Shown here in pieces: positions 2,830 through 34,200 of a stretch of DNA of 64,000 bases. Origin of the DNA: Phoronis australis (lineage: Eukaryota > Animalia > Phoronida); contig NMRA01000109.1 in the NCBI GenBank assembly GCA_002633005.1, positions 164,858-228,857 on the forward strand, in the 5' to 3' direction. Each line of letters begins with the position of its first letter. Position 1 is the stretch's first letter. Under the pieces are notes generated by a model. The model was not told where the DNA came from and made no database searches. It was given only the letters and a program-made list of their open reading frames with translations. The translations under genes were made by a program, and so were the position numbers.

Positions 2830-2835
2830 TGTTTG

Positions 2836-4262: not shown

Positions 4263-4286
4263 TTGGTCAAAAAGGAGCTTCCATGG
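4263..4286 (+). CDS. Microexon, 24 nt, phase 1-1 (VGQKGASM)
   Basis: ctacag|TTGGTCAAAAAGGAGCTTCCATGG|gtgaat within the conserved cassette. Confidence 0.65.
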
Positions 4287-7200
4287 GTGAATAGTTAGTA
4301 AACCGCTACTTCCCACTAAGAGGGAGAATTTATCAATATCAAGTTGAATTATTATAACCAAATTTAATCGTTTTCAGCAGAATACATCATACACTTTGGA
4401 ATCTCAAAAAGTACAATGTAATTGTGAAATTTTGTCTTTTATTAAAAATACTTAAGCCTACACTTTACTTGCTGAAATTACTGAACGTAACACTAGTCAC
4501 TATAACAAATGTACTCAACTTTTAATACACATGAAATATTTACAAACCCTTAAATTAGCTATTAATCTATGATTTACAGATACACAAACAATTACTGCCA
4601 AGGGTCAGTATTTAGTGCCATATTTTTTGAATAAAAACGAATAAATGCAAAGAGAGAATTCACCAAAATAAACTTGAATATTTGTAACTAAATTCAACTT
4701 ATTTCTAAATAACGGTTACTAAACTTAGCAATCACAAACAGTACATGTACCAGCTTGACGCTTTCGTTGGATTGACCTTTTGAAAGATATTTCAAGCTTC
4801 TGGAAATGTGCAGTACTGCAACTATATCTTCTAAACATGGGCCAAGCGTTCTAGTAGCCTACGCTACCAGATAAAACACTACCCATATCAGTCTTGGGTA
4901 CTCTACTAAGTTACGCACATTCTCATACCGACTACAAGTTGTGGCCTCTACTGACCCATAAACGACACGATCACAAGTCGATATTTAATCATTATCTGAC
5001 TTAGAGGGTGACTGGTATCTCCGTGTGGCTCATCTTACCGTACGTTTCCGTTCTCCTACATGTACGTGCCAACGGGTGTTAAATATTATGTCTCATTCTG
5101 AAAGTAGAGAATCGGTCCAGTTCGGGCTTGGTAAGGATTGTCATTACAGTGTACGTGTCATTATAAGACATGTTCTTTCCTGTTAACACACATGTAATGT
5201 TTACAAATCCTTTACAGAATAATTTAGCTCTTAATCTACATGTATGATTTACAGGTACATGCGCGAAAATTATTTTACCACTGCTTCACACCACGTTCAT
5301 CCAACTGAAATGAGAAAATTCATTAATGAAAAGTTGACTTATTATTGGCAAATTCAACTAATTTCTAAATACTTTCACAACTCAGGAATCACAAAAATTA
5401 GGAAGTAGTCTTGAAGTCGTCTTGTTATTAAATTTTAAGAAAAAAATACCCGAAGCGGCAAATTACTGGAAATTTACGATACTACATTTAAGGGCATCCC
5501 GTTTAAATGTAATGAATACGTTTTTGTAGCGTAAGATAAAACACACTTTAATCACCGAAATACGAGTGTGGGGAGAACTCAGTTTTTCATCTGCTTCTTG
5601 AGGATTAAAAACGAACCAAAAATTACGCCCCGTAAATAACTGTGGAGTATATAAATTGTGCACGTAAAAATTGCGACACTTCTTTTCGTCACTATTAAAA
5701 TTTACTCTACCATAGATACACATGTTTACAAGTCATTGACAGAACAATTTAGTTCTGAATGTTTTATTTACAGGTACTCAAAAAGGTACTCCAAAGGGTG
5801 AGTATTTGAAATACCCAAGTTTTTCACTGAAAACGACCAAATGCAAGGAGAACTTTCATCAGTTTAAACTTGATTAATTCTAGCCAAATTCATCTACTTT
5901 CTAAATACGGTAACACTTTCTGAGCATAGGAGTTACAAAAAGTACATGTTGGCAAGTAAACTTCATATTTTCTTTGTATTGAGTTTTAAACAAATATTTT
6001 AAGTTACAAGTTACTGAAAATGATCTTCTAAATGTGAGCAAAAGGTTTTAGTATAATAAGCAAGCTGTGGCAGAAACACTTCTTCAATCTCCTCCATGAG
6101 GCTGAAATAAGAACAAGTAACACACCTTATATACACTGTAGTAGTGATACGTTTTGCACACACTATACACGTGAAACAGAGTGAATCACACTGACAATAC
6201 ACCTTTCCTTTTCTTCTCAGCTTCGATACTTTCAATGCTAAGGTTTCTGAAAATTTATTGTAATGAATGTTATAGATTCATTAATACCACGAGTATCAAT
6301 AAATGCTACTTTTTAATGGCTGACTAGAACATTGAGAGAATGCAGTGTGTGTAATTTACAGTCATAACGCAACATTATGAAAAGAAGGTGCCACCAGAGT
6401 TAAGACTCTCAATTAGGAAACTGATAATATGTGCTTCATTATTCAATGTAGATGTGTAAAAACACTGAATCTCCTCAGTGAGCCGTGTTGATTTACGTCA
6501 CTCTTTGATAATTCTCATTACCTCCTGTGGTTGGACAACTGGTGGTTCAGTAGATGGTGTATGAGTTGGTTATTCGGACGACGGATCATCTAGTCTATGA
6601 GATGGAAGTTCAGAAGACAGAACACCTGGTTGCTCAGATGGCAGCTTCTGGCAGTTGCTCGATTCCTTCTCACAGTGCCATTGGTTGCCTCAAATTGGAG
6701 CAAACGTGGAGTGTGGTTACAGACCATGCGACCATGTGTATGCAGTTCAGACGATTCTCAGCACTCATGCACTCGTGTTCTGTGACCTGGTGTTGTCTGT
6801 TGCAGTTGTCAGCCATCTCCTCCCGATAACAGGCGTGTGTTCAGTAACGCTAGGACCTACGATAGGACCTAGCTGAAATCTAGCTAAACCTACGTGTTTT
6901 CACTTAAAATACACGGCAATATCTCACCTAATCTCGCGAAGACGTGTTTCTAGCAAGGTCCTAGCGTTATTGAACGGGAGGCTGGTCTCTCTTTTTGTAA
7001 CAACGTCTGGGTCTAGGACATATGGATTTAAAAGGTCTGGGCGGCAAGGCACACTTTGTTTTCAATATGTCACAAATGCTACAATGTCTAGGGATGTATC
7101 CATTTGCCAGTGGATTGTTCACTTATGTTGAGAGTTCCAAGCATACATTTTTGCACTTGTTGAGGATCAAGTTAATAGTCTCGACTGCTCTTTTATGTTC

Positions 7201-10200
7201 ACCACTTTGATTGACGATATCTCGGCGATGATGTCATGTGCTGTCGGTAAAACTCGTGAACTGTTGAACTGAGGCCCATTATCAGAAAACAAGACAAGCT
7301 TGTTGACTGTCTCAGTGTTGTTCACATTGCGTGTCACAATGCAAACCCCAAAATATCTCACCACTAGATGTCAAGTTTGTTGCTTGTAGTGGAAGAAGTC
7401 AAAGCCAGCACTTGACCACGCTCTGTCTGGAAACTGTGTCCCAGCTGCTGCGTAATGCTGCTTCTCTGAAGTATGTGTTTGGTGAAAAAAACAAGCGTGC
7501 ATAAGAAAGCGCAATTTGACTTTTTTGGGGTATACGTATTATTTTTCACTATAGTCGCCGTTTTGCCTTGATCCAAGCCACGTAGTGTTGACCCTCGAAA
7601 CGACAATACATATATGACTTTATACGAGTGGAAGCGAACCGCCTATGTCGGGTAATTTCAACTTGCTGCCACCATCGCATACGAAAATGAATGTCTCTCA
7701 ATGGTTGTTGTGGGAATTCGTGTGGGAATTCAGTGGCATTATTCTTGACTGCAGTCACCCATGAATCAAACAATTGATCTGTATCTCTCCTCCTGTGACA
7801 CCAGAATTCGTCTCGTAGCATGAGTTGAGGATCTCATGTCCCGAAGTTCTCATCAAATTGCTACAAATTTAGTTTTAAGTTAATTGGATCTCCCTCTACT
7901 TTGATTTGAAAGCAGTGAAATATTTCACGCCTTGGTCCCACTGTGATTGAGAAGCATTCTCATCTTCATTTCATCTGAGTTCTTGAACGCCCGATAGCTT
8001 TCAAGTATATTTGGAAGAGTTATTTCCACTTCTCCCAGGTGTGTGACGGGTTTCCATGATTTAAGTTAATCGGGCGGTTCCACACTTGGGACGTTCATTT
8101 GAGGTACAGTTTATACTTGTTTTTATTTTTTCACAAACACGTGTATACACAGGAACAGCACAGTCAGATCCTAATTCCTAACACCATGAAGTGATGGGTT
8201 AAGGTTCTATTAAAACCGCTGGTAACAGTTACTGTTGCTTTACTAATGGGTGACTAGAACTCGAGAGGATACAGTCAGTGTAATTTACAGTTATAACCTA
8301 ACACTTCTAAATAAAAGTGCTAGCACATTCATTGAATCTATTGACAAGCCAAGAACCGAAAAAGAGCATCATGAATTACCACACTAATCCATACATTTAT
8401 TTCAGCCACTTAGAAAACCAGGTAAAAGATATCGTGCATGTTGTTTGTATGGGACTTATTTCTTTTCGGTAGAGTTTCAAAGTATACATTCTTTATACAC
8501 ACTTGTAAATTAGACGAAGTCTAGATATGAACAAATTCCACACACCCTTGTAATTTTTGTATTAATTGAAGCGTTAACGTAACTTGCTGTAATACAGGTT
8601 ATGATGAACTCACTCCGTTTCAGGTACAATCAACTTCGTATTTTTGCTTGGACTGTCAAATTACATGTACACTCAGTTCTGCACACTTCCCAATGACCTA
8701 GAGCGAACCAATGTAACGTAGGTGAAATCCGTATTAATGCCGCACAGAATTTTTCAATTTTTGATGTTTACCTGGTCCAGCTTGAACATGTGTATAGACA
8801 TTCTAGTCGGACTAGTTTCGTTAACATTAGGTAGAAACCAGTAGTGCTTCCTAAACTTTAGTAAACGATGTTAGGCAAAAAACTCAAATGACGTCACCAT
8901 GCTTTGGCCATTGGTGCAGGTGTTTTTCTTCGACATGAAAATTATTACGGTCATATTGTTTCCATAATCAACTTGCAGTCAATTCCCAAAATTTCTCCTT
9001 TTTTCATATATTGTGTCTCATGTCTTTCATTTTGTAGTAAGAACGGTTCTACATAGGGATTGTTAGAGGATGCTTATGTTATACGTAGGTTGATGGATTT
9101 ACTGAAAATTGCACTTATCACAATGACAAATGTATACGGCACTTAATACACATGCAATCTTTAGATATTTTTAACAAAACAATTCTGAATCTATGATTTA
9201 CAGGTACTCAAAGAGGTACTACCAAGGGTGAGTGCTTAATACCAATTGTTTCTTAATAAAAACGACCAAACTCTAAGAGAGAACGCATCAATATAAACTT
9301 AAATAATCCATGCCAAATTCAACGTTTTTCTAAATAATTCTGTCTGAACTTATTTGTAAGTATCACAAAAAGATCATATAGCAAGTCAACATGAAATTGT
9401 GTTACAATGAACTTTTATAAAATACTTTCAACTACGAATTACGATACTGCTAAGTGCGAAGGAAACGTGTACTCAATCTACTCCCTGGAGATGAAAGAAA
9501 AAACACGACTTTACGCACCGTATATAATTGTGACTTTCTGTACACACGAAAATCAACGCAAGTCCAGCAGAAATTTCCTCTTTTCGTTTCTTCTCAGTCA
9601 CTGTGCACTCTCAATGTTAACATTTTTGCACATGTTTAATCATATTGGCAAGCCTGGAACAGAAAAAGAAGTATCATACTTTACCACACCAATCCACATG
9701 TTTTTGTCGGTCATTGAGAGAAACACGTGAAAAATAGCGTGCATCCCGTTTATATGGCACTAATTTCAGTTCGGTAGAGTTTCAAATCGTTCATTATTTA
9801 TATGCACTTTTGACTTAGACACAGTCTAGGTATGGACAAATTCTACACTTTATGGTAGTTTTGGTAGTAACCGAATCGTTAACGTAGTTGTTGTAACGTT
9901 GGTGATGATCAGTTCACTGAGTTTTAGATTCAGTCAACTATGTGTCTTTGCTTGGACTTTATTTTACAGTTTGAAATATGACTCAGTTCTTCACAGTTCC
10001 CTATGACGAGGGGCGATACAGTGTAACGTACGGGATATTCAGATCAATTATTCACAGAATATTATCATTTTCTCAATGTTTACTTCGTCCAGCTTGAACA
10101 TGCACGTAGACAATCACGTTGGACTGGATTCGTTAACTTGAGCTCGGAACCAACACTGGGTCCTAGATATGAATGACGATGTTGGACAGAAAAATCCAAA

Positions 10201-13200
10201 TGACGTCACTATCCTTTGGTCACTCTTACAGGTGTTTTTGTTCTCCACGAAACGTATTGCGGCATCGTTGTTTTCATAACTGATTTGGAATAATTTCCCT
10301 GCATGACACCTCTTTTCATATGATGTGTCACATTCTGCAGTGTAAACTGAGTTCACATTGGGATTGGTAGAGATTGCTAACACCACCGTGGGTTGCTGGA
10401 ATTACTCAACAGTCCACTTGTCACAATGACAAATTATACACCACAATTACTAAAAATGCAATGTTTAGAAATATTTAACAGAACAATTAATTCTTTATCT
10501 ATGATTTACAGGTACTCAAATAGATCCTGCCACGGGTGAGTATTTAATATTGCACTGTCTCTCAATTAAAACGACCAAATAGAAAATGAGAATTCATCAA
10601 TAAAATCTTGAATAATTCTTATCAGATTCAACTTATTTCTGGATAATACTGTCTGCACTCAGGTATCACAAAAAGTACATGACACAACACAACTTGAAAT
10701 TTTCTTTGCATTGAGGTTTCAGAAAATTCCTCAGCTACCAATTACTGGTAATATACAGTACTGCTAAAGTCTCTTCCAAATGTTATCTTACGCACTTCAT
10801 GAAGCGCCTTCGAATCAACAAAATTAGAGTGAAGTTGTTCAATCTCCTCCTTTCGAATGAAAGAAAAACAGGAAGTTACACACGGTATATAATTCTACAC
10901 ACTACACACTGCACAAATAAAACAGGACGAGTTCCGCGGACGCTTCCTCGTTTCTTTCCTTTTAAATCTTCGTACACAGTCTATGCTGACATTCCTTAAC
11001 ATCTCTTAAATGAATTGACAAGCCTGGTACAAAAAGGTTGCCATATTTAACCACAGCAATTGATACATTTTGTTTGCCAGTTAGAAATTCAAGTGAAATA
11101 TAACGTAAAGTCCGCATGTATGGCACTTATTTCTGTTGGGTAGAGTTTCAAAATGTGCGTTTGTATCCTAAATAAAGTCTAAGTATGGACAAAATCTACA
11201 TTCTGTAGTAGTTTCCATAGTAATTGAAGCTTTAATGTTAATAGTGAAACGCAGGATCTGAGTGACATCAGTGCCAAATTTTAAAGAACATGGGGTTGTT
11301 TTTACGCTCCCTCGACCGCCACGACTACTTCGACCCACGACCCCTCAACCCACGATCCCATCGACCCAAGGCCCACAACCCCATCGACCTTGTCCACACA
11401 AGCTAGACTAGATTTGAAGACAGAACAAGTACTGACTGGCAACGAGTCTTTTTCTGATTTATTACAATTGAGAGTCGAATCTGCAAGTTTGAGATTCAAA
11501 AACATAAAAAACGCGACAAAATATTATCAAAGACCTACCAACGTAATAGATGACGTTCCCGGCTAGGTGTAATAGTCTCGTCTGCTGTTCAGTGGTTTTC
11601 AGGCTCAAGCTTTTTTGGAGAGTGCGAGGAACTGGCGGATATGTAATTTCTTCAGAAAATACAGTTTGAAAAAATAAACGGTTAACTAAAAGTATGTCAA
11701 CGTTACATGGCGTATGTTGTAAACCAGCACAAAACAGAGAAATTATGCCCTCTCACGTTAACGTGATCTCTTCCTAAGTGTAGTAGAACAGGGTCATTGG
11801 TAGCCGCTAGTGGACCTATTTCCGTGACAACAGTGGCACACCCACAACTCTTTATTTCAGAGTTCTCAAGCAATTTTCTGTTTTAAAGCACCTGGCTTAA
11901 GCCAGAGCAGATTCGCGTATAAGTAAGTGTTATGCTAAAGTCATTCAGCTACGTAACATGATTATGAAATGTGTAAAAAGCGCAAAACCAACCTATTGCC
12001 ACAGATAATGGGTCAAAGGGGGGTTGTTGGTCCTGGTAGGCGAAGTGGGTCGAGGGGGTCTTGGAGTGTGGGGGTCTACGGGGCTTTGGAGCAATTGAAA
12101 CTTTTGTGCTGATATACCTTCATCTATTGTCTGCAAAATTCCCAGTGTAAGCACTGGAACCTCTACTTTCCCATCTATTTGGAAGCGTGCCAGAGTCATT
12201 CATCTCTTTAAGAAGGGAGTCTTAATGACTGTCATACTGATCTCAATTCTTCCTTCACTCTCTAAAAGTCTGTTGAGGAACATGCACAATCACATTTTGT
12301 ACCTTTTGCTGACCTCAATTTTATTCTAGACTCTGAGTCTGGATATAGTGTCAGACAGCTCTGTTTTCAATATCTAACAACTGGTATCACCGGTTGGATT
12401 GTGGCAATTTTGTGTGGAGTCTTATACCTTGATTTTCGTAAAGCATTAGACCCCGAAGTCCCGACACTGATTTAACCGAACTTTATGGCTGCTCTGACAG
12501 ATGGTGTGGAGATTAATGACTGTCTCTCCTGGAGCTGCCAAATCTTACATGTCTGTTAACAGCTGCGGTATCATTTTTTTAGTCGCGAAGACTTCGACCA
12601 TTTTAGACACATCATGCTCATTAACATTTAATGAATTTTATATTAATCCTACTTTAACTTATTGTTTTCCAATACCGTGTAATATTCCTCATGAAAATAT
12701 TGATCAAATTGTTAACTTACAAAAGAGCTGCAAATTTTCTAACTCCATCATTAGATATGTTTAAAGATCTAAGGTGGTTACCATCCCAAAGTTTTCATTT
12801 ACCATCGGGTACTTTTCATGTATTTAACTCAATAATTTCAGACATGTCCCTGATGTCCATCAAAGAAATACCCGTGCACCAACCTTTACGAGCTACTATT
12901 TACGTATTATTAAAACTAAATCTTGTCAAACTAATTGAGTTCCGTACCAATCACCATTCAAAATTGTACGTCATTATCCCTTATAAAACCAGTTAAATCT
13001 TTTCCTAGTATGTAAATTTCAATACATTTTAATTTTAATCTAATTTAACAGAACAAATTACTCCTTAATCCATGATTTACAAGCACTCGCACAGGTGCTA
13101 CCTGAGGTGTGTATTTAAGAGAATTCGTCAAAATCAATTTGAATAAATCAAGCCAAATTCAGCTAATTTCTAAATAATTATTTCTGAATTTAGGAATCAC

Positions 13201-16200
13201 AAATAGTACATGTAGCATGTTAACTTGAAATTTTCTTTGCATTGAAGTTTCAAAATTACCTTCAAACTTCTGGAAATGTACGGTACTGCGGACATCCTTT
13301 AGAGAACAATTTGATTCTTATTCTATTATTCAGGTGGAACTCCCAAAGGTTGGTATATAATATAAATCAATCTTCCGTTCCTTAATAAGTTTGACCACAT
13401 CGAAATAGAGAATTTGTTTATATGCACTTTTATTACTATTGCCAAATTAAAAAAAATTCTAAATAATATTCTGTGAAACGAGTTATTACAAAAGTAGGAA
13501 GTAGTCTTGATGTTTTCTTTTTATTGAACTTTAAGAGACGAAATGCCTATCAACCTACAAACTGGTGGAAACTAATCTCAATGTGCACACAATGTTTTAA
13601 CAGCATAAACTAGCAGACAAAACACATTTTAATCAGAAAATTATCAATGTGGGAAAAACTCACTCAATTACGAGCCTTGTATACATGTAAATGTGACAAA
13701 TTTTAGGATTATTCTAGAACCCCCCGCTCCCACACCACACAACCCCTTCGACCCAGTCTTTACCTGTTCGACGTGAGCGCAGACTTGCACGACCAACGGG
13801 TATATCCGTACCCATGACTAGGTTTTCCATGTTTTTTCGAATTAAAGCAGTCCACCCGACAAGTTTGAATGCCAAAAACAGAAAGAATGCGACACAGTCA
13901 AATCAAAGACTCACCAACGTTACAAATGTCGTTCAGGCCAGAGTGTAATCACTTCGTCTGCTGCAAAGTGAATCACAGGTGGTGGACGATTGTGAGGAAC
14001 CGACGAATATGTAATTTCTTCAGTAGAGTTTGAAAAGCGATATATGAAGTATATCTTAAAATGTTAAACAATAGAAAGTAAATAATACAAATGTGAATAT
14101 TGTGTACGTTTAGGTTAACGTGATCTCTTCCTAAGTGTAGTAGAACAGGGTCATTGGTAGCCGCTAGTGGACCTATTTCCGTGACAACAGTGGCACACCC
14201 ACAACTCTTTATTTCAGAGTTCTAAAGCAATTTTCTGTTTTAAAGCACCTGGCTTAAGCCAGAGCAGATTCGCGTGTAAGTAAGTGCTATGCTAAAGTCA
14301 TTCAGCTACGTATCATGATTATGAAATGTGTAAAAAGCGCAAAACCAACCTATTGCCACAGATAATGGGTCAAAGGGGGGGTTGTTGGTCCTGGTAGGCG
14401 TCGTGGGTCGAGGGGGTATTGGAGTGTGGGGGTCTACGGGGCTTTGGAACAATTCAAACTTTTGTGCTGATATACCTTCATCTATTGTCTGCAAAATTCC
14501 CAGTGTAAGCACTGAAACCTCTACTTTCCCATCTATTTGGAAGCGTGCCAGAGTCATTCATCTCTTTAAGAAGGGAGTCTCAATGACTGTCATACTGATC
14601 TCAATTCTTCCTTCACTCTCTAAAAGTCTGTTGAGGAACATGCACAATCACATTTTGTACCTTTTGCTGACCTCAATTTTATTCTAGACTCTGAGTCTGG
14701 ATATAGTGTCAGACAGCTCTGACTTCAATATCTAACAACTGGTATCACCGGTTGGATTGTGGCAATTTTGTGTGGAGTCTTATACCTTGATTTTCGTAAA
14801 GCATTAGACCCCGAAGTCCCGACACTGATTTAACCGAACTTTATGGCTGCTCTGACAGATGGTGTGGAGATTAGTGACTGTCTCTCCTGGACTGCCAAAT
14901 CTTACATGTCTGTTAACAGCTGCAGTATCATTTTTTTAGTCGAGAAGACTTCGACCATTTTAGACACATCATCCTCATTAACATTTAATGAATTTTATAT
15001 TAATCCTACTTTAACTTATTGTTGTCCAATACCGTGTAATATTCCTCATGAAACTATTGATCAAATTGTTAACTTACAAAAGAGCTGCAAATTTTCTAAC
15101 TCCATCATTAGATATGTTTAAAGATCTAAGGTGGTTACCATCCCAAAGTTTTCATTTACCATCGGGTACTTTTCATGTATTTAACTCAATAATTTCAGAC
15201 ATGTCCCTGATGTCCATCAAAGAAATACCCGTGCACCAACCTTTACGAGCTACTATTTACGTACTATTAAAACTAAATCTTGTCAAACTAATTGAGTTCC
15301 GTACCAATCACCATTCAAAATTGTACGTCATTATCCCTTATAAAACCAGTTAAATCTTTTCCTAGTATGTAAATTTCAACACATTTTAATTTTAATCTAA
15401 TTTAACAGAACAAATTACTCCTTAATCCATGATTTACAAGCACTCGCACAGGTGCTACCTGAGGTGTGTATTTAAGAGAATTCGTCAAAATCAATTTGAA
15501 TAAATCTAGCCAAATTCAGCTAATTTCTAAATAATTATTTCTGAATTTAGGAATCACAAATAGTACATGTAGCATGTTAACTTGAAATTTTCTTTGCATT
15601 GAAGTTTCAAAATTACCTTCAAACTTCTGGAAATGTACGGTACTGCGGACATCCTTTGCAGAATAATTTGATTCTTATTCTATGATTTTCAGGTGGAACT
15701 CCCAAAGGTTGGTATATAATATAAATCAATCTTCCGTTCCTTAATAAGTTTGACCACAACGAAATAGAGAATTTGTTATTATGTACTTTTATTACTATTG
15801 CCAAATTCAACAAAATTCTAAATAATATTCTGTGAAACGAGTTATTACAAAAGTAGGAAGTAGTCTTGATGTTTTCTTTTTATTGAACTTTAAGAGACGA
15901 AATGCCTATCAACCTACAAACTGGTGGAAACTAATCTCAATGTGAACACAATGTTTTAACAGCATAAACTATCAGACAAAACACAGAAAATTATCAATGT
16001 GGGAAAAACTCACTCAATTACGAGCCTTGTATACATGTAAATGTGACAAATTTTAGGATTGTTCTAGAACCCCCCCCCCGCTCCCACACCACACGACCCC
16101 TTCGACCCAGTCTTTACCTGTTCGACGTGAGCGCTGACTTGCACGACCAACGGGTAGATCCGTACCCATGACTAGGTTTTCCATGTTTTTTCCAATTAAA

Positions 16201-19200
16201 GCAGTCCATCCGACAAGTTTGAACGCCAAAAACAGAAAGATTGCGACCCAGTTAAATCAAAGACCCACCACCGTTACAAATGTCGTTCCGGCCAGAGTGT
16301 AATCACTTCGTCTGCTGCAAAGTGAATCACAGGTGGTGGACGATTGTGAGGAACCGACGAATATGTAATTTCTTCAGTAGAGTTTGAAAAGCGATATATG
16401 AAGTATATTTTAAAGTGTTAAACAATAGAAAGCAAATAATACAAATGTGAATATTGTGTACGTTCAGGTTAACGTGATCTCTTCCTAAGTCTAGTAGAAC
16501 AGGGCCATCGGTAACAGCTCGTGGAACTATTTCAGTGACAACGATAGCAGGCTAACAATCCACTATCTCAGATCACGATATCACGCCATTTTCTGTTTTA
16601 ACCACCAGAATGAAGCAGATTTGTGTTTAGGAATGTCTTATGGGGAAGTCATTCAGCGACGTAATGTGATTGTGCAATGTGTAGATAGCGCCAAGATACA
16701 TCTATTGGCACCGGTCGTTTGTCGAGGGGTTTATGGGTCATGAGGGTTGTGGGTGGAGGGGATCTGGGGTGGAGGGGATCATGGGGTGTTGGGATCAAGG
16801 GGATTTTAGAACAATCTCAAATTAAATTTAACATGCATTGTGAACGTAAAGAGCGTGACAGTTCCTCTTTTCGTCTGATCTCAGCCCTGTGCATTTTAAA
16901 GGAGAATGCCACCCGATTAAATTAGTTTTGTTACCGTCTTAATCGGTCTGTATCCACCTTACATTCGCATGCCGTCGATCTCACCTCGCCCAAAATTATC
17001 GCGACGTCAGGGGTTCTTCAGTTGCCTGTGTGCCACTATGGTGTGGTGTGTCGTTCCCGCTTGTGCAAACCTTGAAGTTGCGAAGAAAGCGGTATATCAT
17101 TTTTGATTTCCTCGGGAATAAAGATGCTTCAGACGTAGCACTGGGCTATAAAGAACGAAACGTACATATGCGATGTATGATGCCGTGAAATAGATTCTTT
17201 GTTTTCGTCCAGCATTGTTGTGTTTGAAAATGATTTTTTCTACCCAAACCAAAGTTTTTTATCAAACTGAAACAAAAAATGTAAATTAATTATTAATTAT
17301 TTCGTATTGCTTCAGGATTGTTCGTGAGTGCAAATGTTATTAAGAAATCAACAATGAATAGATCATACTGCGTTACCGGGCTTCAGATACAATAAAACTG
17401 ATTGACCGCCGTGTTAGCGCATGCTAGTTCAGTGTTTGCTGACAGAAAGCTGCTGTGAAAGTAGAACTCGATTTTACATGCTATGATCAGATGTTAGAGA
17501 AATATATATATGGGTGTATATATATATAATCCTTTTCCCTGTAAGGGTCTGTGGAAGTGGATCTTGACTTCGTGGCCCCCGGCGAGTAGGAAGATTTGTA
17601 ATTTCGCGGCGAATTCACCACAGTAATCACGCAAACATTACTTCTTTGGTTCACTAGTCTAGTCTTTTCGTGACTGAAAGTTTAGTTTTCAAATGTCACA
17701 GCCGAGAAATCCAACTGCTTTATGTTCGTAATGTCTCCAGTCCAACTGCGACGAGCCTGCTAGGTACATGTATACAGATGTATGAGCCACTGGGTTATAA
17801 CGAGCGTTTTGTGTTTATCACAGAAAAATAATACGCGCGGCTATGTTTTTCTTTCTGTATTTCACGGAAGATTCCTATTGTTAATGTTTATATATATTTA
17901 TTCAATAACTAGGACCCCATCCTTGTTACAATCAAATCATCACATAAAATAAAGGTAAGTGTCAAACACTAGAAGTAAATCGAGTTCTTCGTTTGAATGC
18001 GAAATGAACATATTTACATGTTGACCATATAAGATCTTTTTCCTCCATAGTCATGAGCTGGTTGAATTTTGTAACATTGGGATTGTTGTAGCTCCATGCA
18101 GGCAAATATCGTTTCCTAAGGTCATCGTAGAATGGGCATTCGATAACAAAATAATATTCTGACTCGACATATGTCCTAACACAGAGAGGGCATAACCTTT
18201 ATGTTCTGCAAAGTTTCAGGTGTGTACCCTTTTCAATCATTAGTGCATGCGCTGAACATCTTAATCTTACCATATCAGAGATCTGACATTTACATTGTCA
18301 ATTACATCTAAATAGTTTTCAAAACACATATTTAACTTAAAAGTTCTGTAAGTTTCCAGCTTAATCGAATTTCTTACCATTTTTGATGATCAATATCTTT
18401 ACATCTTTGTTTAAAAAGTGATATGAAGCTTGTCTCGGAACCTACACCCTGATTGTACCATGCTTCTCCAAAACCAAACTGAAATAGCAAATTCTTAACG
18501 TCATTAACCCAGCACGGTTTACTAACATTTTCCGTCATATTATACTGCCATTCATAGCAATGATATGTAATTTTTGAGGCATAGGTTTTTAATAGTTTTC
18601 ACCAATATTTCATAATTCTAGGAAGTTGGTAAGCAACCAAGGAGTAACGACTCATTTCACCACTAACAGTCGATGAAATTGCGGTGCTCGGCAAATTTAA
18701 AATTTCTTTACAAAATTTTGTGTGGACTATTTCAGTACATTCGCAGTCACTAAAACCCCAGATCTCACAGCAATAAGGAAGTATCGGCAATAGTTTACAA
18801 TCCAATAATTTCAAACTAACTTTAACTCATTAAATTCATTGTCTTAGTAGCGTGTAATGATAGAGTTTTCTGTGCGCAAGACCACGAACCTTTGGTAGTA
18901 AACATTAATCCTAAATATTTATATGCATTTACAATAATAACAGTATTTCCATCATACGTCCATTTTTCATACGATCGTAACAGTCACCCTTTCTGAAAAC
19001 AATTATCTTAGTCTTCGACATGTTAACAATCAATTTCCATTTCTGACAATACGCATATAAAATGTTCAATTTTTTCTGCAGTCCTTTCACACTATAAGAA
19101 GATAAAGCCAAATCATCAGCAAACAGCACATGCAATAATTTAGGTGATCCCATGGAATTTTTTTCACCGCCACCGGATTCTAATTCTTGCTCGAGATCGT

Positions 19201-22200: not shown

Positions 22201-25200
22201 TGCAATTATTCATTCTGCCTCAGGTGCTCTACACACATACTAAATATTCACTTCTGAAGTGAGTATCACACAATTTGTCAGCCTCCACGAGGTCACTGTG
22301 TTTATCTCTCTCAACCACACCACAAATTTGATGAAAATAGTTTTACTTGTTCAGTCAAAAGAATCAATTTTCGAGACACAATTCTCACCTGGAGGCCTAT
22401 AATGCGACACCTACCGGTTCATTTATGATCGAGCAGAATCCAATCTTCCCGCGACTGAACATTCAAAATTTATAAATCCGTAACCACGAAATAAAACAAC
22501 TAATTTCTTTGTAAACTCTGTTCAGTTGTCGGGTTTTTACATTGATGATGAATTTAAGCGATAAGGTGACACCACTAAGCGCCTTTTGAAGTGCTGAGCA
22601 GAGTGTTAGAACCTGTGACGCCATTAGTTTATTTCAGCATCTCCGTCTGCCGTCTGGTGTCAGGTCAAAGAAATTAACTTGCTGTTATCGAGTGAAGCTA
22701 CTTAATCTAAATTGATACAAACCCGCTGTTTTTGGTGGCATTCTACTTTAAAGTTAACACTGCTTCACAATTCTCGATTTTAGAACTTAAAGGGTTTATC
22801 GTCCGTGATATTTAAATTAATGACTCAGAATGTCTAATTGGTCCAGCTCAAACAAGCGCATGGACATTCCGGTTGGACAAGCTTTGTTAAGTTGAGTGAG
22901 GATGTTGGACTAATGGACTCAACATATTTTGACAACTGGAACAGGTGATATTTATTGCGGTTTCATTGTTTCCATAATCGAGTTGAAGTAATTACCCTAC
23001 ATGCCACCGGTTGTCATACAATGTGTCTTTTTCTGACGTGAAGAATGTGTCCAATGTTGATTCGGTACACATTCTTATTACAAACAGGAGGTTCCTGGAA
23101 TTACCGAACAGCGCACTTGTCGTTATGCCAATACTACAGTCCCATATTACACCTATATATTTACAGATCCTTAGCAGAATAATTTATTGTTAACCTGTTA
23201 TTTACAGTTGATCAAAAGGGATCTTCCGCGGGTGAGTACATAGTAAACAACTGATTCTCACTAAAAACCCCAAATGCAAAGAGAGATTTTATCAATGTCA
23301 ACTTGCATTATTATCAAATTCAACTGATTTCCGCATAATACTTTCTGAGCTTAGGAATCACAACATACCAACATTTTCAAATTATTGAAATCATACAATT
23401 CTAAGCGTGAGCATTGTGAATAAAACAATTAACCAGAGCAAACATATTTTACTTAGCGAAACATCAGTGTGGAAAAATATTTACTTAATCAGCACCTCGA
23501 GGGTGAACGAGAAAGAAGTAATTACACGCAGTATGTACATGTAAACATGTGTACATGTATTCTTCTTTTCGTTCCTTCCCAGTCGATGCACACTCTCAAT
23601 GTTACCACATTTCTTCCATCTGTTGACAAGAAGTCTAAAACTGAAGAAGTGCACTTGGTCACAACAATATAGTTGTTTATTTTATATGTTCTATGTTTGT
23701 CGTTTGTTCCATTTACATATACACTTTGCTTTATTGATGATAAGAACATGTATAAGAAACTAGTACCCTTTTTCCGGATTTAAATCTTGGAATATTTATA
23801 GGTAAGACTGTAGCCCGGTGTGCAAGCGACTGCACAATGATGACTGTGCTTATGTGTTGCTTTTGTGCTATTTTGTATCGATTTCTGTCTTTTCACTTGT
23901 TTTTAGAAACATTAATTGTTTTAAGAGATAGCCCAATCGGTTTGGGAGATTTGTGGGTCATTACCTTGGTGTTGAATATTTGACTTTGGGTGTATTTCTT
24001 CAGTATTCATCATTATGTGGTAGAGGAAGTGTTTCGGTCTGTCTCAGGTTAGTTTGCATTTACTCTACATTATCGTGTTTTAACTCGTAGTCTCGATATA
24101 GTCGTGTAGTATGGTTGATAATCGCGAGTGTATGTAGCCTAGTACGTGTTATTATAGAAAGTCAGCGACCATTCATTGTGACTATGCTTTGCCATGTTGT
24201 ATTCCGCCATATTTATAGTCGTTGGTGGCTCTCTTGTGTATTGTAATGTTTTTCGTTTTCTTCTATTACGGTGTCAAACAGTTGCATTGATAGTACATGT
24301 ATCTTCAGTCCAATAGTCATATTGAACTGGTACGTGTGATATAAAAAGTTATTCATTTTGTGTACATATTTGTCTAGATATTACATAAGTTAAATGTAAT
24401 TAACGTAATGAAAAATTATAGATTGTGACATTGTATTGCAATAATTGCACTGTGTTGTTTGCGTATTATGTTTTAAATTTATTAGTAGGGTGTTTAAATC
24501 TACCACAGCAGAACCTGTTACACCTTTCGAAGAAGGAGATAGAAAACATGGTCGCTGGTTTCGAAGATATGGGAATGAAGCCAAAGGCCGCATCAACATG
24601 TGACATTACATCATGGTTTACTGACTTGCTTAAAGTGGACAGGTATTTCTTAACCAGAGTCATGAGCATTTCTCCAGTTTCTCTGGGGAGAAGAAACAAA
24701 ATTCTACTTACAATTTTTGCTGTTTTCAAGTCGGTTATCTTAGGAAATTATCAAAAGTGGAGCAAGTAATGCTTGTAGTACGTCGATCGTTACGGGGCAA
24801 AGCGAAGAGAGTGATGATGAAACTGCCTCCGGCCCTGAAAGAACTTTAAGTGGATCTTGCGTACTAATTCAAACTAGAAACACAATATATAGCAATAGAT
24901 ATTGAATGTGCAGACGTTATTAAGGTTCCTTAGCTATGATATCCTGAAGTTACGATTGGTGTCAAATGTCTACGTGAGTTAATGTGCTTACTGTTTCTTG
25001 TTCCCGGTACGTCATATAATACTGCATTTCCCATTTTGATAGGAAATAATCGCCTTATAAACTGATGCATGATTGTCTTAAGTGGTTTGGGTACGCTTCT
25101 TGCACAAAACATTTCCAGTGCACGCTGTTTACCCCTGAAAGGTCATCAGCTCGAAATGAATGTTTACCGTTTTGGACTCGTCAGATGTGGAGAATGCAAG

Positions 25201-28200
25201 ACTGCCATCGTGCTCTCCAACCAACAAGTGGCCGTAAAGTGTTATGTCGACGGGTAAACTCCCGCCATGCTACTACGGCCAACATGCAAGCGTTGGAAAG
25301 ATCTTTGTTGAGCTCTGACTTGGAAGTTACTCCGGCGCTAGTTGATCGCTCTTGTGATAAATGTAGAAGTTTTGTCGACTTTGATATATATAACCTTACT
25401 GAGACACCAATATTTGATAGCCTCAAGCCTGAGCTGCAACCAGTTGCTGTGGAGAACGTGCTCAACTCTAGTTTGGTTTACAGAGATAGAGGTGGTTGGT
25501 TAGATAAATTAGCATTTATGACAAATGTTCATCTGAACTACGCCATTGTGTGTGCAGACGTTGGATCGTTGGGAAGTTGAATTTTTACATAACGACAAGG
25601 ATGTACTGATAAAGGCCGAACATCAGCAGTGAAACATAACTTATTTGATAAATCTCTTTTTAAGTGGCAGTGTCGTAGATTTATGATAAATGAAGAGTCG
25701 TCCTCTTCAGCTCTTGGGGAGAGGGGAGGGAGGGGAGAGGGGGGAGGGAGGGGGGAGGGGAATGGGGGTTTGCTGGTTATTTTCGCAAATTTGACAGGAA
25801 CTTCGCGCAGATTACTCGCAACTCTATGATCTCATGACAGCTGAAAAATAGAAGTCGACGGTGAAGTCCAGCGAAACAAAAATTAGAAAACGGGAACAGG
25901 ATCAGGAAGAGTCTTTTGAAATTGAAAGAGGAATTGTGTTCACCTGCCGTGTTTGGTTATCCGAACATTTGAGTTCCACACTCATGCTAGCCGGTTACTA
26001 CCTTTGTGTAGCAAGTTCACCATGGTTAATAACAATAAAAAATTAACCATTTAACATGCGTTCACTTAGTAGTGTCAAGAGAGACACTACAGGGCATCTG
26101 TGGTGGATGTTATGGCTGTGTGCCTTTGAAATCGTTTACCGTCAAGACAGGCAGAATACAGTTGCTGTTGTCAAGACGGCCCGGTGTGTGTAGAGAGTCA
26201 TAGGTTATCCACTGGGTCAATCAAACTTGTTTGAAATCAATGTTCATTTTATCCCGCAGCTGAGTGTGTCTGTCTGCTTGTGGCTTGGGGAGAAACTGCT
26301 GTCGACAGCAACACGGCAGATGGGATTGAGGGTACATGTATGTCTGCTCGAGATTCGCAACAAGCTCAAATCAATGAAAAAATAGATGGGGCTGATGAGA
26401 ATTGGTTACAAGCCTCGACGAAGTCAGCTTGCAGTTGTTGAACATGATTTGACGTGTTTTGGTAGCCTGATTTGTCTCCAAGTAATTCGCTAGAGGTTGC
26501 AGTTATTGTCACCTAGATAGTTGCAGTTTCTAAACAATGAATGTGGTAATTCAGACTGAGATCGTACTTTGACATTGATAAAAAGGTAGATCTTACCTTC
26601 TAGCACTGACTCGACCTGTTGATAATTATGCTGTAGTTGGTATGTATATGCCATCTTACATTGGAATCGTCGAAGGGTGGATTTCAAAACATTCTAATGG
26701 TTACGGATCATGTCACCAGCCGAAGCGACACCAACATTAAATCAAACATAAACAATGATGAAGCGTTCTTTAATAACTTTGTGATGCATTATTGGTTGCC
26801 TAAATGGATGCACTCTGATCAAGGCGCTAAATTTGAGAACACTTTGACAAGGATGTATGTCATTTTAGTTTTATTCTTAAATCTGGTTCTTTTAATAAGC
26901 CGGTTCCTTCCAGTGGTTTCAGTAGCATTTGTATAGTCTAACAGTAGCTTGACCAGCCGGCTATTATTACGTATTAGCCTCTGTATGTTACGCGGGTGTT
27001 TGGCGACGAGCCTTTCACGAGTTTACAGACATTCGTTGACAAGATCTGTAAAGGGAATCATGTGTTTTCCTCGGATGCTGGAATTTTTAGATCAAGCACA
27101 GACTATCGGCCAAACTGATGTAAGTTCTGAGTATTACGGCATAGCATGTTGTACTCGTGTGTATCTACTAGCTAAGTTTAGAGCGTACTTGTGTATGGTG
27201 TGGGTCAACGTGTAGTTTAATTCAGCTGCTTGTTTGGTGTATATGTTGCGCGGTACCCGGTGCCCCGGTGCATAGGATTAATAGTTACGGGTAGCAGTTA
27301 GGCAGTTGTTGTGTATGGTAATGGTTCCCAGTTGTAGAATAGATAGTATGGGTTCCAGTGCATTGTGTATTGTTAGCGAGGTAGTATTTGTTAGGCCTGT
27401 AATCTGGAGTCATTATTGCGAGTCTTTCTAACGATCTGATGTATAGTGCTTGTTAATTAATTACGCTTGCTTGCAGATAACCGCTTGTTCGGTTTCTCCT
27501 TTTCAACGCTTGTTCGGTTTCATATTTTCAACGCTTCTTCAGTATCTATTCTTCAACGCTTCTTTGGTATCACTTTCAACGCATGTTCGGACACTTTTCT
27601 GCATTGTCTGTAACCATATCGTTTGCCAATGCTGCACTGAATAAAGTGTGTTATGCAAACGGCGTCTCCAGTTATATTTTCAACTCATCCCTGTAGCCAG
27701 AAGCGGCTACACGGCGTGTGCTCCATTTTATTTAATGATGGGTACATAGCATGGATTGCCAATAGACTTAGCATTTGGCTTGGTCAGAACGAAGTATGTG
27801 AACCCCATGAAAACACGTTTCTGGAGGTTTGTGACCTAGCGCGAAACAAAATTGTGAAGATCCGTCGGAGAATGAAGGGTCACTATGATTTGTCAGTTCA
27901 TGTGGCTGTGCTTGAGCCTGGCGATCCTGTTCTCGTGCTGGTAGTAGCTTTTGATGGTAAGCATAAAACTGATGATAGATGGAATTAATGTGTTTATGCT
28001 GTAAAAATCAGCCAAATGGCGATATTCCAGTGTTTGTTGTGTTCAGAGAAGGTTTGCCGGTTGTGAGCGAACTCGACGTCGTGACCTTTTGCTTCATGTT
28101 GGTTCACTGATAACGGATCGCGGCGAAGCTAGTCGCAGTCTCCGACCAAAGCCAACTCCAACGTGGAGTCGTTGATATTTGGTGTAGAACGAGGTTGTCA

Positions 28201-31200
28201 GGAATCGTCAAAGAACCCCTGGAAGGAACCTATGTAAGTGGGGTGTGTTATGGGAACTGGTGCTATAGTCTCGAACTGTGAAGTTCAGACGTCTGACAGT
28301 GATGTTCTGGAAGGGCCCAATTCTTTGTGTGAATGACAAGCCTGTTTCTAATGTCGAGGATCCTGCTTTTGGTTCTCCAAATACATTGCCTTAGTCCATG
28401 TTGTGCAGTGTCGGAGATGTCCGCGTATTAGAAGGAAAGTAATCTGGCAGACAAATTATGATCATAGATAAGACTGCTGTTTCGACTTGGCTTCTCAAAT
28501 TTGGGTTTTATAGTCTGTGGTACAACCGCGTTTTAAGAAAAATGGAGTGGTGTGGAGGTGTGCTCTACATCTTAGAAATTGATCGATGACGAAGATGTCA
28601 TTTCAGTCGAACGGGAGTATGTGAAAGTCGTATGTTCTTTGTCCTATGCTCTATGTGTTCTTTGTTTGTATTGTGTTCTATTTATAACGTTTGGTTTGCT
28701 TTAATGATAAAAATTATGAAAAGCATTTCTGTTTTTCCAGATTAAAATCTTGATTGATTGTTTATGGGTACGGCTGTAGCTTGGTGTACTAGCCACTCCA
28801 CCACGAAGACTGTGTGCTTCTGTACTGTTTCTGTGATATTATATGTAACTACTTTGGTCTTTTCGCTTGTTACTGGACACAGCAATTGCTTTGAGAGGTG
28901 AACCAGTGAGTTTGGAAGACAAGCAGGAAGATTGCCTTTCAATTCAAGAGTTGACCTGGGATAAATTAATTTAGTATTCATTAGTAGTTGTTGTAGGAAG
29001 TGTTTCAGTCTGCCTCAGCTTAGTCTGCATTTATTCTATATCACTACGTTTTTACTCGTACAGTAGCCTTGACACAGTCTTGTACTGGGTTTGATAATCG
29101 TTCAGGTATGCATTTTTTGTGGAACATTCACCGCCGGCTAGCATTTAGTATGAACATGCTTTGTCGTGTTGTTTATCGCGATGTTTTTCGGCGTTGGCTG
29201 GTCTGTTATGTATGTATTGCAATGTTCTTCTTTTCCTTTTGTTACAGTTTCATTTATAGTACATGTAGATTCAATCCAGTGTTTATCCTTACTCAAGTCA
29301 AATTGAGCTGGTACATGTGATTAGGTTTCATGATATAAATTGTTATTCATGTTGTATGCATGTTTATTTAGATAACACATAAGTTAAATGTAATTAACTT
29401 AATGTAAAAGTTTAGAATGTGTTATTCATGTATTGCAATAACTGTACTGTACTGTCTGTGCGTGTTAATGTGTTTAACTTTAATTGCAGGGTGTTTAATT
29501 TCTTCAACGAGGATAAACATTCTAACCTTAACATCGAATTTGCCTCGCCCGAATAAATTCATACTCAAAACGTACCCAGAGTGACATGCATGAAGTAATA
29601 TCCCACAAGACATTATTCCGCGTATCGACCGAGACCGAACGAATTCCTAAGTTTCTAACATTTTTTCGCAGATTTTTAAATACTTCACCAAGACTGTTCA
29701 CACGGCCGATCACATCCTATATGTGTGTACTTGCTCGTTAGGTTGCAAGTTTTCTCTAGTAAAAGAAACAATTTTAAAACTAGGGATTTATTTCTTGAAA
29801 AGAGGTAACAAAGATGAAAACACTGGCAAATGCGCGGTGAAATTGTAACACCTTCTGGATATAGTTAAAAAACAACAATATTTGATATTGTATTTTCCTA
29901 GGAATCGGCGCCTGAGTTGCAGACGATATAGTATTCAGCAATTGAAAACTGAGATTTTACGCCTAGGGACTAATTGCATGTCGAATGCTAGTTACACTGC
30001 TGCAACTGTATTACTTTAAATTATATTTGGAAAGTTTGATGATCGAACCGGCTGAAGAAGTCGAGTCGACATTGACCTACCTTTTGAACTTTCCCTGTCA
30101 GAGGTCATTGTTGAGGTAGTGCGGAGGTGAAAACGGAAAACTTTATTGCATGGCAGTATTTCCTCGACAGATTCAACGCGTATGGGATAAAAATACATAC
30201 ATTTGCGATAGCCCCTTAGACAACGAGTTGAAATGAACCGTACTTGTCGATTTTTCTGCACTTGATGAAGGGCGAATCTCTGTAAGGCACACGATATTTG
30301 CGTTAATGTCTCGCAATGTTTTTCCATTTCGTGAATGTCTACTTGGTTCAGCTTGAACATGGATATGGACATTACTGTTTCATTGGCTGTGCATCAGAGG
30401 GGGCTGGGGTATACCCCCAATTTTTCAGCGCTGCACGGCCCATGGACATGTGCGGCGCGTACCATAGCGGCTGGGGGCTGTAGCCCCTCCGCCCCACTTA
30501 TTTCAGTGCTGTGCTGCCCATGCGTTGCGATTTTTTTGGGATATGTCTCTTGTCAATTTTTCAAATGTCAATAAGCATTACCCCAATAATCTTAAAAAAT
30601 AACGCAAATAGTACGTGTTAGATCTGGCTGCTTGAAGCCGCAAATGTCAACGCTTTATATAGTAAACGTGATCAAATTTTACCGTTTACATCGGAATTTC
30701 CTCTAGTTCTACGCAAATATAGGACAAGGCCACGTGTCAGGTCAAGGCAAATCCAAATGTAGCAGAACTTTGAGCGTTGGTATTAACGAATCTTGAACTA
30801 CCAACCGAGGCGCTAAAATCGACAATGCCCTCAAAGTCGTTAAGTCCAGCGACATCTAGCGTTTAAGTTTTCAGCGTTAGTCTGCTTACGATTGTCAAAA
30901 GAGTATCGGGACACGTAGCTATTCAAAATGCAAACAGACGCAGTAAGTTAAGAGTTTGTTTCCAAAAACGATACTTCCAACAGCATATTTTACTAATGCA
31001 GCTTTTGCGTATTTTTAAAGCATATATTCGAACCCAACAATCGTTCAGATTGGATAGAAAACGCAATGCAAGAATTGCTTAAGCAATGTATCAAAATGTT
31101 CCAGGGTCGACCGACTTGTAAGGCCAAAGGAACAAAGCACAGGGGCATACTTCATTCTAGTTCCTTAACGTTTTTTAAAGTACGCTAACTGACAAAAGAT

Positions 31201-34200
31201 GTTCTGTACACATACATGTATGTCCTTCGAAACTCAAAAATGTACAATTTCCACAAATCCTTATGCATTTCTACTCTGTATTTTTTACTTGCTAATGGAG
31301 AAACATGGAAAAAACAAACTATGCAAGCAAATATGAACACAAAATAAGAATGAAACAGATCGCAATAACATTTATTCATCATAAAAAACTTTAAAATCCA
31401 CCACAGAAAGCTGAGACAGTATGATGTAGGTAATTTACTTGAGGCATACAATAAAATAGGTGAGGATGGCATGTCTTTGTCATTTCAGCATCAGCCATTT
31501 AAGACAATGATATTTTAATGTTTGGAAGAAATTTTAATCAAAGCAAAGTGAGATCAATGTTTTTGAGATCTTGTTGCACACTTGTCGTTTGATATCTCAC
31601 AAGTTGTACTTAGTAGTAAAAGGCCTTATTTCCTTTGAAGAGGTTGCACATTACCGTTACATTCTTAACCATGCGCCTTCAATTTTGGTATTTAAATGAC
31701 TCTTACAAATAATTATTGTTAAGTTGTCACCATGTCGTAGATTTTAAGTCTGCTTTGCTTTCCTAGATCTCCGGAGATCTCTCGCTGGAACGTTGACTGT
31801 GATGAGTCTCGGAAACTCTGGTAATGTGAAATCCCGAAACTGCCTCTATAATGTCGTTCCAGAACGGGAGTTAACACCATGACCCTGTATCCCAAAAATG
31901 TTATGAATACATCTTAATAGATTTAATAGCCTTTAGTATACTTGTTGCTAAGAAAAAAATATTTTTCTGTTATCGGGGTTGTACATGTACGTATTGGGTG
32001 GAAGACCGTTTCCGCCGATGTTGTTTTTACCATTGCGATACTGAGGAGCTGTGACAAAAGTCCGCAAAGTGCCGCCTTTTTCAGACACGAAAAGGTGCGT
32101 GTTTGGAGGATGTAGTAACACCAACTTGACTGAGAACGTCTTTTTGTTCAAAGTTCCAAAATACGTGAAAGTTACACAGAAGTGGTATCGGTTTATGCCG
32201 CACCGGAGTGACGTGGAATGTCATAGTGTGGAACATGAGAGTCGGGAGCCAATTTTTAGTCGGCACATGTCACGGAATCGTGTTTCTACCAAACACAAAA
32301 AGGGCGTTGCGATGAAGGACTTGTCACCTTGTTTGTAAATTTTATAAATAACGATCAAACTGCTTCCATTCTAGGCCAATTGATGCCAGGTCTTCGACCC
32401 CGGCCACCATCGAGTGATGCGACACGTAGGCCTTGTGTTTACACCGTGCCCCAGGTTTACTGTAGCCTTTGTTACTGATTATTAGGTTCTATTCTGTGAA
32501 TATTGGTCGCCCTTTCATTCAGTTGGTTGTGGCTTACATATGTTTGCAGCATTTCTGGTACAAGTGGGCCTAGTTCATACGGCCTCAAAGCTGACGAAAG
32601 TTCGCCAATTGGCAAATCGAATTCATTGTTTGATTCCTAAAGTACTTCAGTGTGATGCCCGTATCCGCTCTCCTCTATGTCTAGATAATTACTGTCCAGT
32701 TATTGCTCAAAATGGTCCTCGTATTCTGATCTGCTATATTCCGCCATTGCAATTGATTTTCAAGTGACCAAACGTCTTCCAACCATTACATCATTTTGCT
32801 GAAAACTTGGAACTAACTAAGTTTTCTTCACAATTTAAACAATCGCGTCTATTTGGAAAAAATATTTTGTTTATTTTGTGGTACTCGTATCAAATCAGCT
32901 AACTGAAACCTCAAAAACTAAGAAAATGCATGGTGGGAGCTCTTTAAATGTGGCGCCACCTAGTTTGTTGAGAGAAGGCTGTAGACCTGCGATAGGGTGC
33001 AATGTATATCACAGCCTTAGTCTTTTCCCAACAAACTAGTTGGCGTCAAATTTAAATTGTCCTCGTCCTGGAACGAAGGGATAGGTTCATTTTCGAGATC
33101 CCACGTGATCTGAGTTCACGGGACTCATCACCGTCAACATCCAATCGAAGTAGACGGGAGATCTATGAAGATCTAGGAAAGCAACAAAGTAGTCCAGCAG
33201 ACCAGTTTTAAATTTATTATCGAGAACATTCCTGGATGGCTCAAGGTTTACACTTTATTTATACTATCTTAACCAAATTTGCAAATTTCAGTACCAAGTA
33301 TCAATTCAATATCAATTAACAAACAACGTACATGTAAACTACAATGTATGGACAGGGAGCGGCTTTTATTTACTCGGCTTGTATTACTCGGGGCATTATT
33401 ATGGGTGACACGTTTCGAATTGTAAAAGCCAAAATATACGCGAAACTCGTGCACATGACTAACATTACGTTTGACTCATATAAGGAGGATTTTTTTATAA
33501 ATGACGAAAAGGTCAGACTTACATATTTATACATCGTGCTTGCAAAGATAATAATGTTGACAACTTGAAGCGCGTCTTTTTGCGAATGAGCGACCGGGTA
33601 AAGAAGTAACTCAACATTCTTGGCCTTATCACCGACCGATCCGCTTTGGAATGCACGAATGCTTGCAGACAAAATAATTTACATAGACTGAGTAACAACT
33701 AATTCACAAAATTCACCATACAGTCTGATAAGTCCCTAGCGGGCACATGCGGTAAGACGTAAGGTGTATCTAATTAAGCATGTGATGTTAACATCTTGTG
33801 AACGTTATACAGGTACTGACAAGGGTAAATATTTGTTACTTGTCGAAATGCAGTTTCTCCAAGTTTGTTGTTTTGTCGTTTTTGCTTATTGTTGCGTTTC
33901 TTTATTTGCACGCTACAGGTTGCATTCGGTCAACATGAAATTTCCCAAAACACGTGTGGTGCCCTTTCAATTATTTACCAACTGGCTTACTGGGTTTCCT
34001 ATCTGTATTTGATATACTCTGGAAAGCCTTGCAATTTCATCCACTTGCATAATGCAAGTTTTATTTGACCGTTTGAGAAGTATTTGCATGTACCGACCAA
34101 AAATTCGAGCCCAGGATATCCCGGATTCTATCCAGACACTGCAGGCTAATGACCTACATGATTCGAGACGAACTCCGGGACATTTCACATGATTTTCATA

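Follow-up and report, generated by a model that had tools for sequence, protein, structure and literature searches.

In Schistosoma mansoni, SmPoMuc genes are described as repeating a 27-bp exon together with its introns in units of about 1 kb, which number as many as about 20 and are more than 93% identical; the proteins are secreted, and repeat number varies among transcripts (PMC2576457). Micro-exon genes (MEGs), described as restricted to platyhelminths (PMC4350168), contain runs of symmetric exons of less than 36 bp in long introns and encode low-complexity products (PMC4350168, PMC4671649, bioRxiv 10.1101/2023.06.21.545858). According to these accounts, MEG variants are due mainly to alternative splicing (bioRxiv 10.1101/2023.06.21.545858), some MEG products are membrane-anchored and have been likened to cell-associated mucins (PMC4671649), and in Group 2 VAL-6 a known domain is combined with a MEG-like part (PMC4350168, PMC4671649, bioRxiv 10.1101/2023.06.21.545858). 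Typical features of a MEG are also a coding region composed mostly of microexons, a long 5' exon that encodes the signal peptide, and an elevated dN/dS in the mature protein. Here, we analysed 64,000 nucleotides of the phoronid Phoronis australis (assembly GCA_002633005.1, contig NMRA01000109.1, positions 164,858 to 228,857 of the forward strand; hereafter the window, in which all positions are given) that contain an array of tiny symmetric exons upstream of exons for a SEA domain and a transmembrane helix. The array is real and partly validated by RNA reads, and the gene is one that ordinary annotation would miss.

This locus is built like the SmPoMuc and MEG genes but is a member of neither, nor of the classical mucins; it is a variant of the exon-per-repeat surface-protein design known from SmPoMuc and MEGs, and its genomic design is closest to SmPoMuc. 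As in SmPoMuc, one short exon encodes each peptide repeat (24 nt here, 27 bp there) and was duplicated in tandem along with the adjoining intron; for SmPoMuc, unequal crossing-over was proposed, and its signature is seen here, and truncating aberrant splice forms are common to both (PMC2576457). Compared by design with the published description, the phoronid units differ in being only about 70% identical (flanks 70%, exons 67%, and so below the 93% of SmPoMuc repeats, a mark of concerted evolution) and in lying at uneven distances because of intervening repeats, with SEA and transmembrane exons downstream. The runs of small symmetric exons and the low-complexity product resemble those described for MEGs, whereas the skipping described for MEGs was not seen in either exon tested here. 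Microexons make up 210 of the 836 coding nt in the window (25%; 43% without SEA), and the 5' part lies beyond the window.

The original prediction had called nine AG/GT-bounded phase 1-1 exons, and all nine were found where it had placed them, with the lengths (24, 15 or 12 nt) and peptides it had given. On the plus strand the candidates are VGQKGASM (24 nt, 4263-4286, donor GTGAAT) and DTQTITAK (24 nt, 4580-4603, donor GTCAGT), both called from sequence; GTQKGTPK (5774-5797), GTQRGTTK (9204-9227) and GTQIDPAT (10512-10535), each of 24 nt with consensus splice sites; two 15-nt segments encoding GGTPK (13334-13348 and 15693-15707, donor GTTGGT in both); VDQKGSSA (24 nt, 23208-23231); and GTDK (12 nt, 33813-33824). 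All nine end in G, and five have non-consensus donors (GTGAAT, GTCAGT, GTTGGT twice and GTAAAT). A tenth symmetric microexon, which had been overlooked, lies at 54928-54951 on the same strand and encodes GAMKSNVT with an N-V-T sequon; its splice sites are consensus, and the fit of an RNA contig described below suggests its use. All ten microexons are divisible by 3 and in phase 1-1. A window-wide strict scan for open phase 1-1 segments with consensus donors returned five segments on the plus strand (four of the nine plus 54928) and none on the minus strand, against a mean of 0.25 and a maximum of 1 in 60 Markov simulations. A looser scan gave ten on the plus strand and one on the minus strand, compared with a mean of 0.37 in 30 simulations, a contrast that is inflated because its donor list was tuned on the observed exons. 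Neural microexons of the Srrm4/eMIC type have a UGC immediately before the 3' splice site; TGC was found between -20 and -3 in none of the nine segments, so that the Srrm4/eMIC signature is absent here.

Sequences from four runs were aligned to positions 23100-35000, using 18-19% of each raw-read run. Two of these runs, X1 and X2, are two libraries of one study, and two of the nine exons lie within the read-tested region. A joint from 23233 to 34729 occurs in 37 reads of X1, 35 of which have ACTGACAAG, the exact letters of the 12-nt exon, between the two sides; in X2, all 25 joined reads carry ACTGACAAG. The bases that fit both sides resolve the order as 23208-23231, 33813-33824 and the exon at 34730, on the expected strand. 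Pooled, 62 reads join 23208-23231 to the 34730 exon and 60 of them contain the exact 12-nt exon, which proves that both microexons are spliced and that they are linked to the 34730 exon, as had been proposed. A joint leading directly from 23231 to 34730 was not seen among the best 15 of 27 joints, one of which had only 4 reads; the 95% upper bound on the fraction of reads skipping the 12-nt exon is 5% with no hidden skip read and 13% with 4 hidden. Assuming even coverage, and given the depth on the 34730 exon, 23.5-37.6 joint reads in X1 and 12.6-21.6 in X2 would be expected if 23208 were always included; 37 and 25 were seen, and observed over expected joints ranged from 0.98 to 1.98 across 18 parameter settings. 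Both exons look near-constitutive in the two libraries. The idea that any subset of the nine can be freely skipped (2^9 combinations) is not supported by the 60 of 62 reads with the 12-nt exon and the lack of a skip joint among the best 15 of 27; at most 2^7 combinations, from the seven upstream exons, would be left. The third run, X3, had a depth of 0 over the 34730 exon; therefore, expression differs between samples.

The same reads say something of what precedes 23208. The match on the 23208 side extends to 28 nt, which would require an upstream exon that ends in AG, as the 15-nt exons and the pseudo-exons described below do and a working 24-nt exon does not. In addition, one X2 bin held 734 letters, as against 734 expected with an AG-ending upstream exon and 710 otherwise, which is indirect evidence. 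The 28-nt match bears on 15693-15707, and 13334-13348 has this indirect support in common with it.

Eight of the nine segments were proposed to sit in a repeated intron cassette, and alignment and profile searching confirmed this, with 33813 as the exception. Eleven copies of about 300 nt could be aligned at a mean column identity of 63%. A profile built from the intron downstream of seven exons found 12 significant copies, all on the plus strand and within 3880-23421; the other 40 kb of the window contained none. A candidate exon is present in 8 of the 12 copies; the other four, which lack a working exon, had been overlooked. The first is a 3' fragment (3880-3971, plus strand; nhmmer E 8.8e-12) beside a LINE-like insertion, which suggests one more copy that lies upstream or was destroyed. 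The second is an exon-less copy (5180-5443, plus strand, from the alignment) whose acceptor AG at 5253-5254 is followed at once by GT. Here, the conserved block downstream lies 15 nt closer than in the 15-nt copies, and the exon was likely deleted cleanly; the resulting AG-GT site at 5253-5260 could act as a recursive splice site. The last two carry 24-nt pseudo-exons on the plus strand, at 13083-13106 and, as its duplicate, at 15440-15463, both with AA in place of the acceptor AG and with a TGA in frame. Rfam gave no match in the window, and therefore the cassette is no known RNA family.

Growth of the array can be read from its larger repeats. Self-comparison revealed a recent tandem duplication (11484-16761, period about 2357 nt) set among copies of a dispersed repeat. 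Of the three copies, the middle one is 92-100% identical to the third over 13660-14080 and 95-100% identical to the first from 14140, so that it is chimeric with a switch at about 14100-14140; in its sequence, this switch is the pattern of an unequal crossover behind the 2.36-kb duplication. Both 15-nt exons and both pseudo-exons come from this single duplication, a history that the original prediction had missed, and the two duplicate units, alone among the copies, are 96-98% identical. Furthermore, the exons at 9204 and 10512 each lie in a copy of a longer unit, about 1.3 kb in size and 72% identical between the two. The array has turned over at the DNA level, through a duplication, two pseudo-exons and one empty cassette.

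We then compared selection on splice sites with that on residues, using a flank tree of the 11 copies. The four AG/GT positions show 1 change against 7-10 expected (P 0.0005-0.006), figures that are approximate because the AG/GT columns went into the tree and four of its forks are open. By parsimony, the six intact 24-nt exons underwent 21 amino-acid-changing and 4 silent changes, where the intron rate (178 changes over 150 gap-free columns) predicts 20.2 and 7.1. Mean identity over 15 pairs was 67% for the exons and 70% for the flanks, and the repeat peptides are diverse, with 1-6 of 8 residues in common. From these comparisons, the presence and frame of the exons look constrained and their residues do not. 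Since splice sites are kept while residues change at the intron rate, a spacer fits and a conserved binding motif does not.

Downstream of the array, on the plus strand throughout, the 34730-34882 exon (153 nt, phase 1-1, known from the reads and a contig) encodes 51 acidic, Gly-rich residues with 14 D/E, one Ser-Gly and one N-Y-T sequon. A Ser-Gly with acidic neighbours, close to a SEA domain, is a possible glycosaminoglycan site. The first half of SEA (172 nt, 45876-46047) was matched by Pfam PF01390 at E 1e-4 and 22.8 bits, which for this half domain is under the cut-off of 26.4. The second half, called from sequence (170 nt, 52681-52850), opens with S-P-G-S-V-V-A over the junction; it gave no match in Pfam, and Atlas clustering placed it in a SEA cluster at 0.83, which is a lead only. 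Both SEA exons are open, match in phase and sum to 342 nt. HMMER searches with the first half against cluster representatives returned five matches, and SEA was present in three of the four scanned; the match without SEA (P0125) was treated as chance. The SEA relatives, 22-41% identical, are a lungfish mucin-16-like protein, one from a soft coral and one from Schistosoma japonicum; none is an orthologue. BLASTP of the second half against the HMMER match P0123 gave no alignment. The exon at 61559-61689 encodes a predicted transmembrane helix (hydropathy 3.02 over 19 residues), a 22-residue acidic tail and a stop, and the poly(A) signal AATAAA lies at 61825-61830. Pfam, the HMMER relatives and the hydropathy thus bear out the claim that the locus holds a SEA domain and a transmembrane exon. 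A PDB sequence search gave two matches, both due to chance.

In the window, the order is 62 residues of Gly/Thr/Lys/Gln repeats from the microexons, the acidic part, the SEA pair, eight residues with N-V-T, the hydrophobic stretch and the short tail, and a single-pass membrane protein is likely encoded. In the DNA of this locus, the order of a repeat-rich ectodomain, a single membrane-proximal SEA domain, a transmembrane helix and a short tail is that described for the MUC1, MUC12, MUC13 and MUC17 type, and GSVVA resembles the MUC1 site GSVVV (PMC4456727). Unlike in the SEA mucins, the repeats here are split one per microexon and are short within the window (62 residues, 26% Ser+Thr). The repeat region of MUC1 sits in one large exon, and the Pro/Thr/Ser-rich repeat domain of mucins has about 40% Ser+Thr. 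With 16 Ser+Thr and 4 Pro in 62 residues, the microexon part is not a domain of that type. Searches of an open-licence literature library turned up no microexon-array SEA protein.

Two further splice forms bear on the product. The X4 contig (468 nt), presumed to be RNA and viewed over its match, matches 34729-34885 with 0 mismatches and continues for three bases (GTG) beyond the donor. Because it begins with TGG, the first SEA exon cannot be the continuation; the 54928 exon begins with GTGC and has the only strong acceptor among 16 able to give the continuation. Six candidates for an extra exon starting with GTG between 34883 and 45876 were all poor. The length also fits, since 1+153+24+290 = 468 nt would end the contig at 61848, 18 nt past AATAAA. 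Judged from this one contig, an mRNA without SEA (the 34730 exon to 54928 to 61559) is likely. The proposed fusion of the array to a SEA protein calls for caution: SEA and transmembrane exons are in the locus, but the one contig that leaves 34730 best fits a SEA-less mRNA. X4 begins exactly at 34729, the last base before the 34730 exon. This start may be the branch of two upstream forms in that sample, by intron retention or by skipping of both last microexons.

The other form uses a minor acceptor (24004-24023, plus strand; 5 + 2 reads) in an old LTR-like repeat, with the frame V-F-I-I-M-W-stop; 7 of the 69 reads leaving 23208 enter this acceptor at 24003/24004. Direct repeats of 0.8 kb at 23683-24497 and 28652-29498, 68% alike, flank about 4 kb of decayed sequence, and they are likely an old LTR retrotransposon in sense orientation. 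Sense coverage at 23497-23893 was 0.07 in X1 and 0 in X2 and rose to about 2-3 in the next bin, as if the 24004 form reads on unspliced. Because a poly(A) signal is absent from 24004-26000, this form may be a decay substrate.

On balance, we favour a single gene whose membrane protein carries a spacer stalk, with copy number changing at the DNA level instead of through free exon skipping. The array would descend from one 24-nt phase 1-1 exon that was duplicated along with about 300 nt of flanking intron, and the outer stalk would be assembled from short Gly/Thr/Lys/Gln repeats, each encoded by one microexon, all of them included jointly. The array can turn over because any gain or loss keeps the frame. 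Selection would hold the splice sites and frame and not the residues, as suits a spacer that is disordered, possibly glycosylated, and determines how far the protein reaches from the membrane. The basic repeats would be followed by the acidic part, a SEA domain predicted to be cleavable at G-S-V-V-A, and the transmembrane helix. Alternative splicing would act on larger units, the 342-nt SEA pair being in or out as X4 suggests, and the minor acceptor at 24004 would yield a short form without an anchor. In this model, we infer the inclusion of the upstream exons, the transmembrane link, the spacer role and SEA skipping.

Several points weigh against the stalk model. The reads cover two of the nine exons, and the upstream seven could be skipped, here or in other tissues; five of the nine donors are weak, and the estimate of 23208 inclusion bounds skipping only loosely. 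An N/S of 1.85 among the six 24-nt exons (P 0.36) is compatible with diversifying selection without demonstrating it, and the 2.36-kb duplication may be an artefact of assembly. The 5' end of the gene and its signal peptide lie beyond the window, and the splicing into the SEA and transmembrane exons is predicted. Ser+Thr (16/62) is low for a mucin domain, so that glycosylation of the stalk is conjectural. An orthologue was not found among longer proteins, with 0 of 16 candidates for the first SEA half and 0 of 79 for the 34730 exon, which is weak evidence.

A possible but unlikely alternative is MEG-like diversification, in which the upstream microexons are skipped in varied combinations, perhaps in unsampled tissues or stages, as MEGs are described to operate (PMC4350168). 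It would account for the symmetry of all ten microexons, the five weak donors, the diverse repeats (N/S 1.85) and the other alternative splicing within the locus. Symmetry, however, is equally needed by tandem duplication, residue change is not faster than intron change, and both testable exons are near-constitutive, one of them being 12 nt long with a weak donor. TNNT3, which encodes fast skeletal troponin T, likewise has a run of small exons, spliced combinatorially, but its product is a cytosolic muscle protein for which skipping was demonstrated (PMC2447309). A wider version of the skipping idea, which we hold with similar doubt, is a MEG/SmPoMuc-like diversifying surface protein of independent origin outside flatworms. 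It would have a fixed core of 23208 and 33813, combinatorially skipped distal microexons, a switchable SEA domain, a transposon-derived acceptor leading to a soluble microexon-only form, and allelic variation in exon number.

A reading of the cassette as a small dispersed mobile element, or the relic of one, with most upstream exons being unused copies, is improbable. The four of 12 copies without a working exon and the copies' likeness of only about 70% would fit this, but all 12 lie on one strand in a single 20-kb stretch within the 64-kb window, their splice sites are conserved beyond drift, and one cassette exon (23208) is spliced. We regard it as very improbable that the duplicated 24-nt exons are spliced in a mutually exclusive manner, like those of a Dscam-type cluster. 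Equal length and phase, tandem origin and conserved flanks are what such a cluster would have; yet 23208 is apparently in most transcripts reaching 34730, another spliced exon precedes it, and RNAalifold found 0 consensus pairs in the cassette and therefore no docking-site structure. Finally, the X4 contig and the 7 of 69 reads that hit an acceptor stopping the frame before the anchor would suit a short secreted or SEA-less product with the SEA exons rarely or never used, but we find this hardly credible, as both SEA exons are open, phase-matched and 342 nt in sum, and the first half still matches SEA, which is unlikely if long dead.

In this read-supported gene, the life cycle of microexons can be followed within one locus: they arise by unequal crossover and are lost when the acceptor decays or the exon is cleanly deleted, and their splice sites are kept while the residues drift freely. 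As a case outside flatworms, it would offer a testbed for whether such arrays are splice-variant generators or a frame-safe means of stalk lengthening; the present data lean towards the latter. Exon symmetry alone is no proof of combinatorial splicing.

The window is animal-type DNA, with spliceosomal introns and LINE-like and THAP-bearing repeats. LINE-like insertions lie in introns on the minus strand at 1-3800 and 18000-22100; their ORF1-like frames are open (2836-3597, 253 aa; 21365-22084, 239 aa), and the second frame is broken in each. The first has animal relatives in ticks, Hydra, a brittle star and abalone, at identities of up to 50%, and the named matches include no flatworm. An element of about 1.3 kb at 40593-41926 has long inverted arms, about 89% alike, and a THAP-domain frame at 40876-41187 (Pfam E 4e-10), and a second, MITE-like inverted-repeat element at 43381-44129 has arms of about 300 nt at 80%. 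At 27035-27640, joints at 27117-27477 and 27517-27640 with other letters between appeared in all three raw-read runs and are probably transcripts of related repeat copies elsewhere. Dispersed repeat pairs were found at 35324-35687 and 59579-59950 (81%) and at 31868-32581 and 61948-62677 (66%). In addition, the octamer TACATGTA occurs 27 times in the whole window, where about 2 occurrences are expected from base content.

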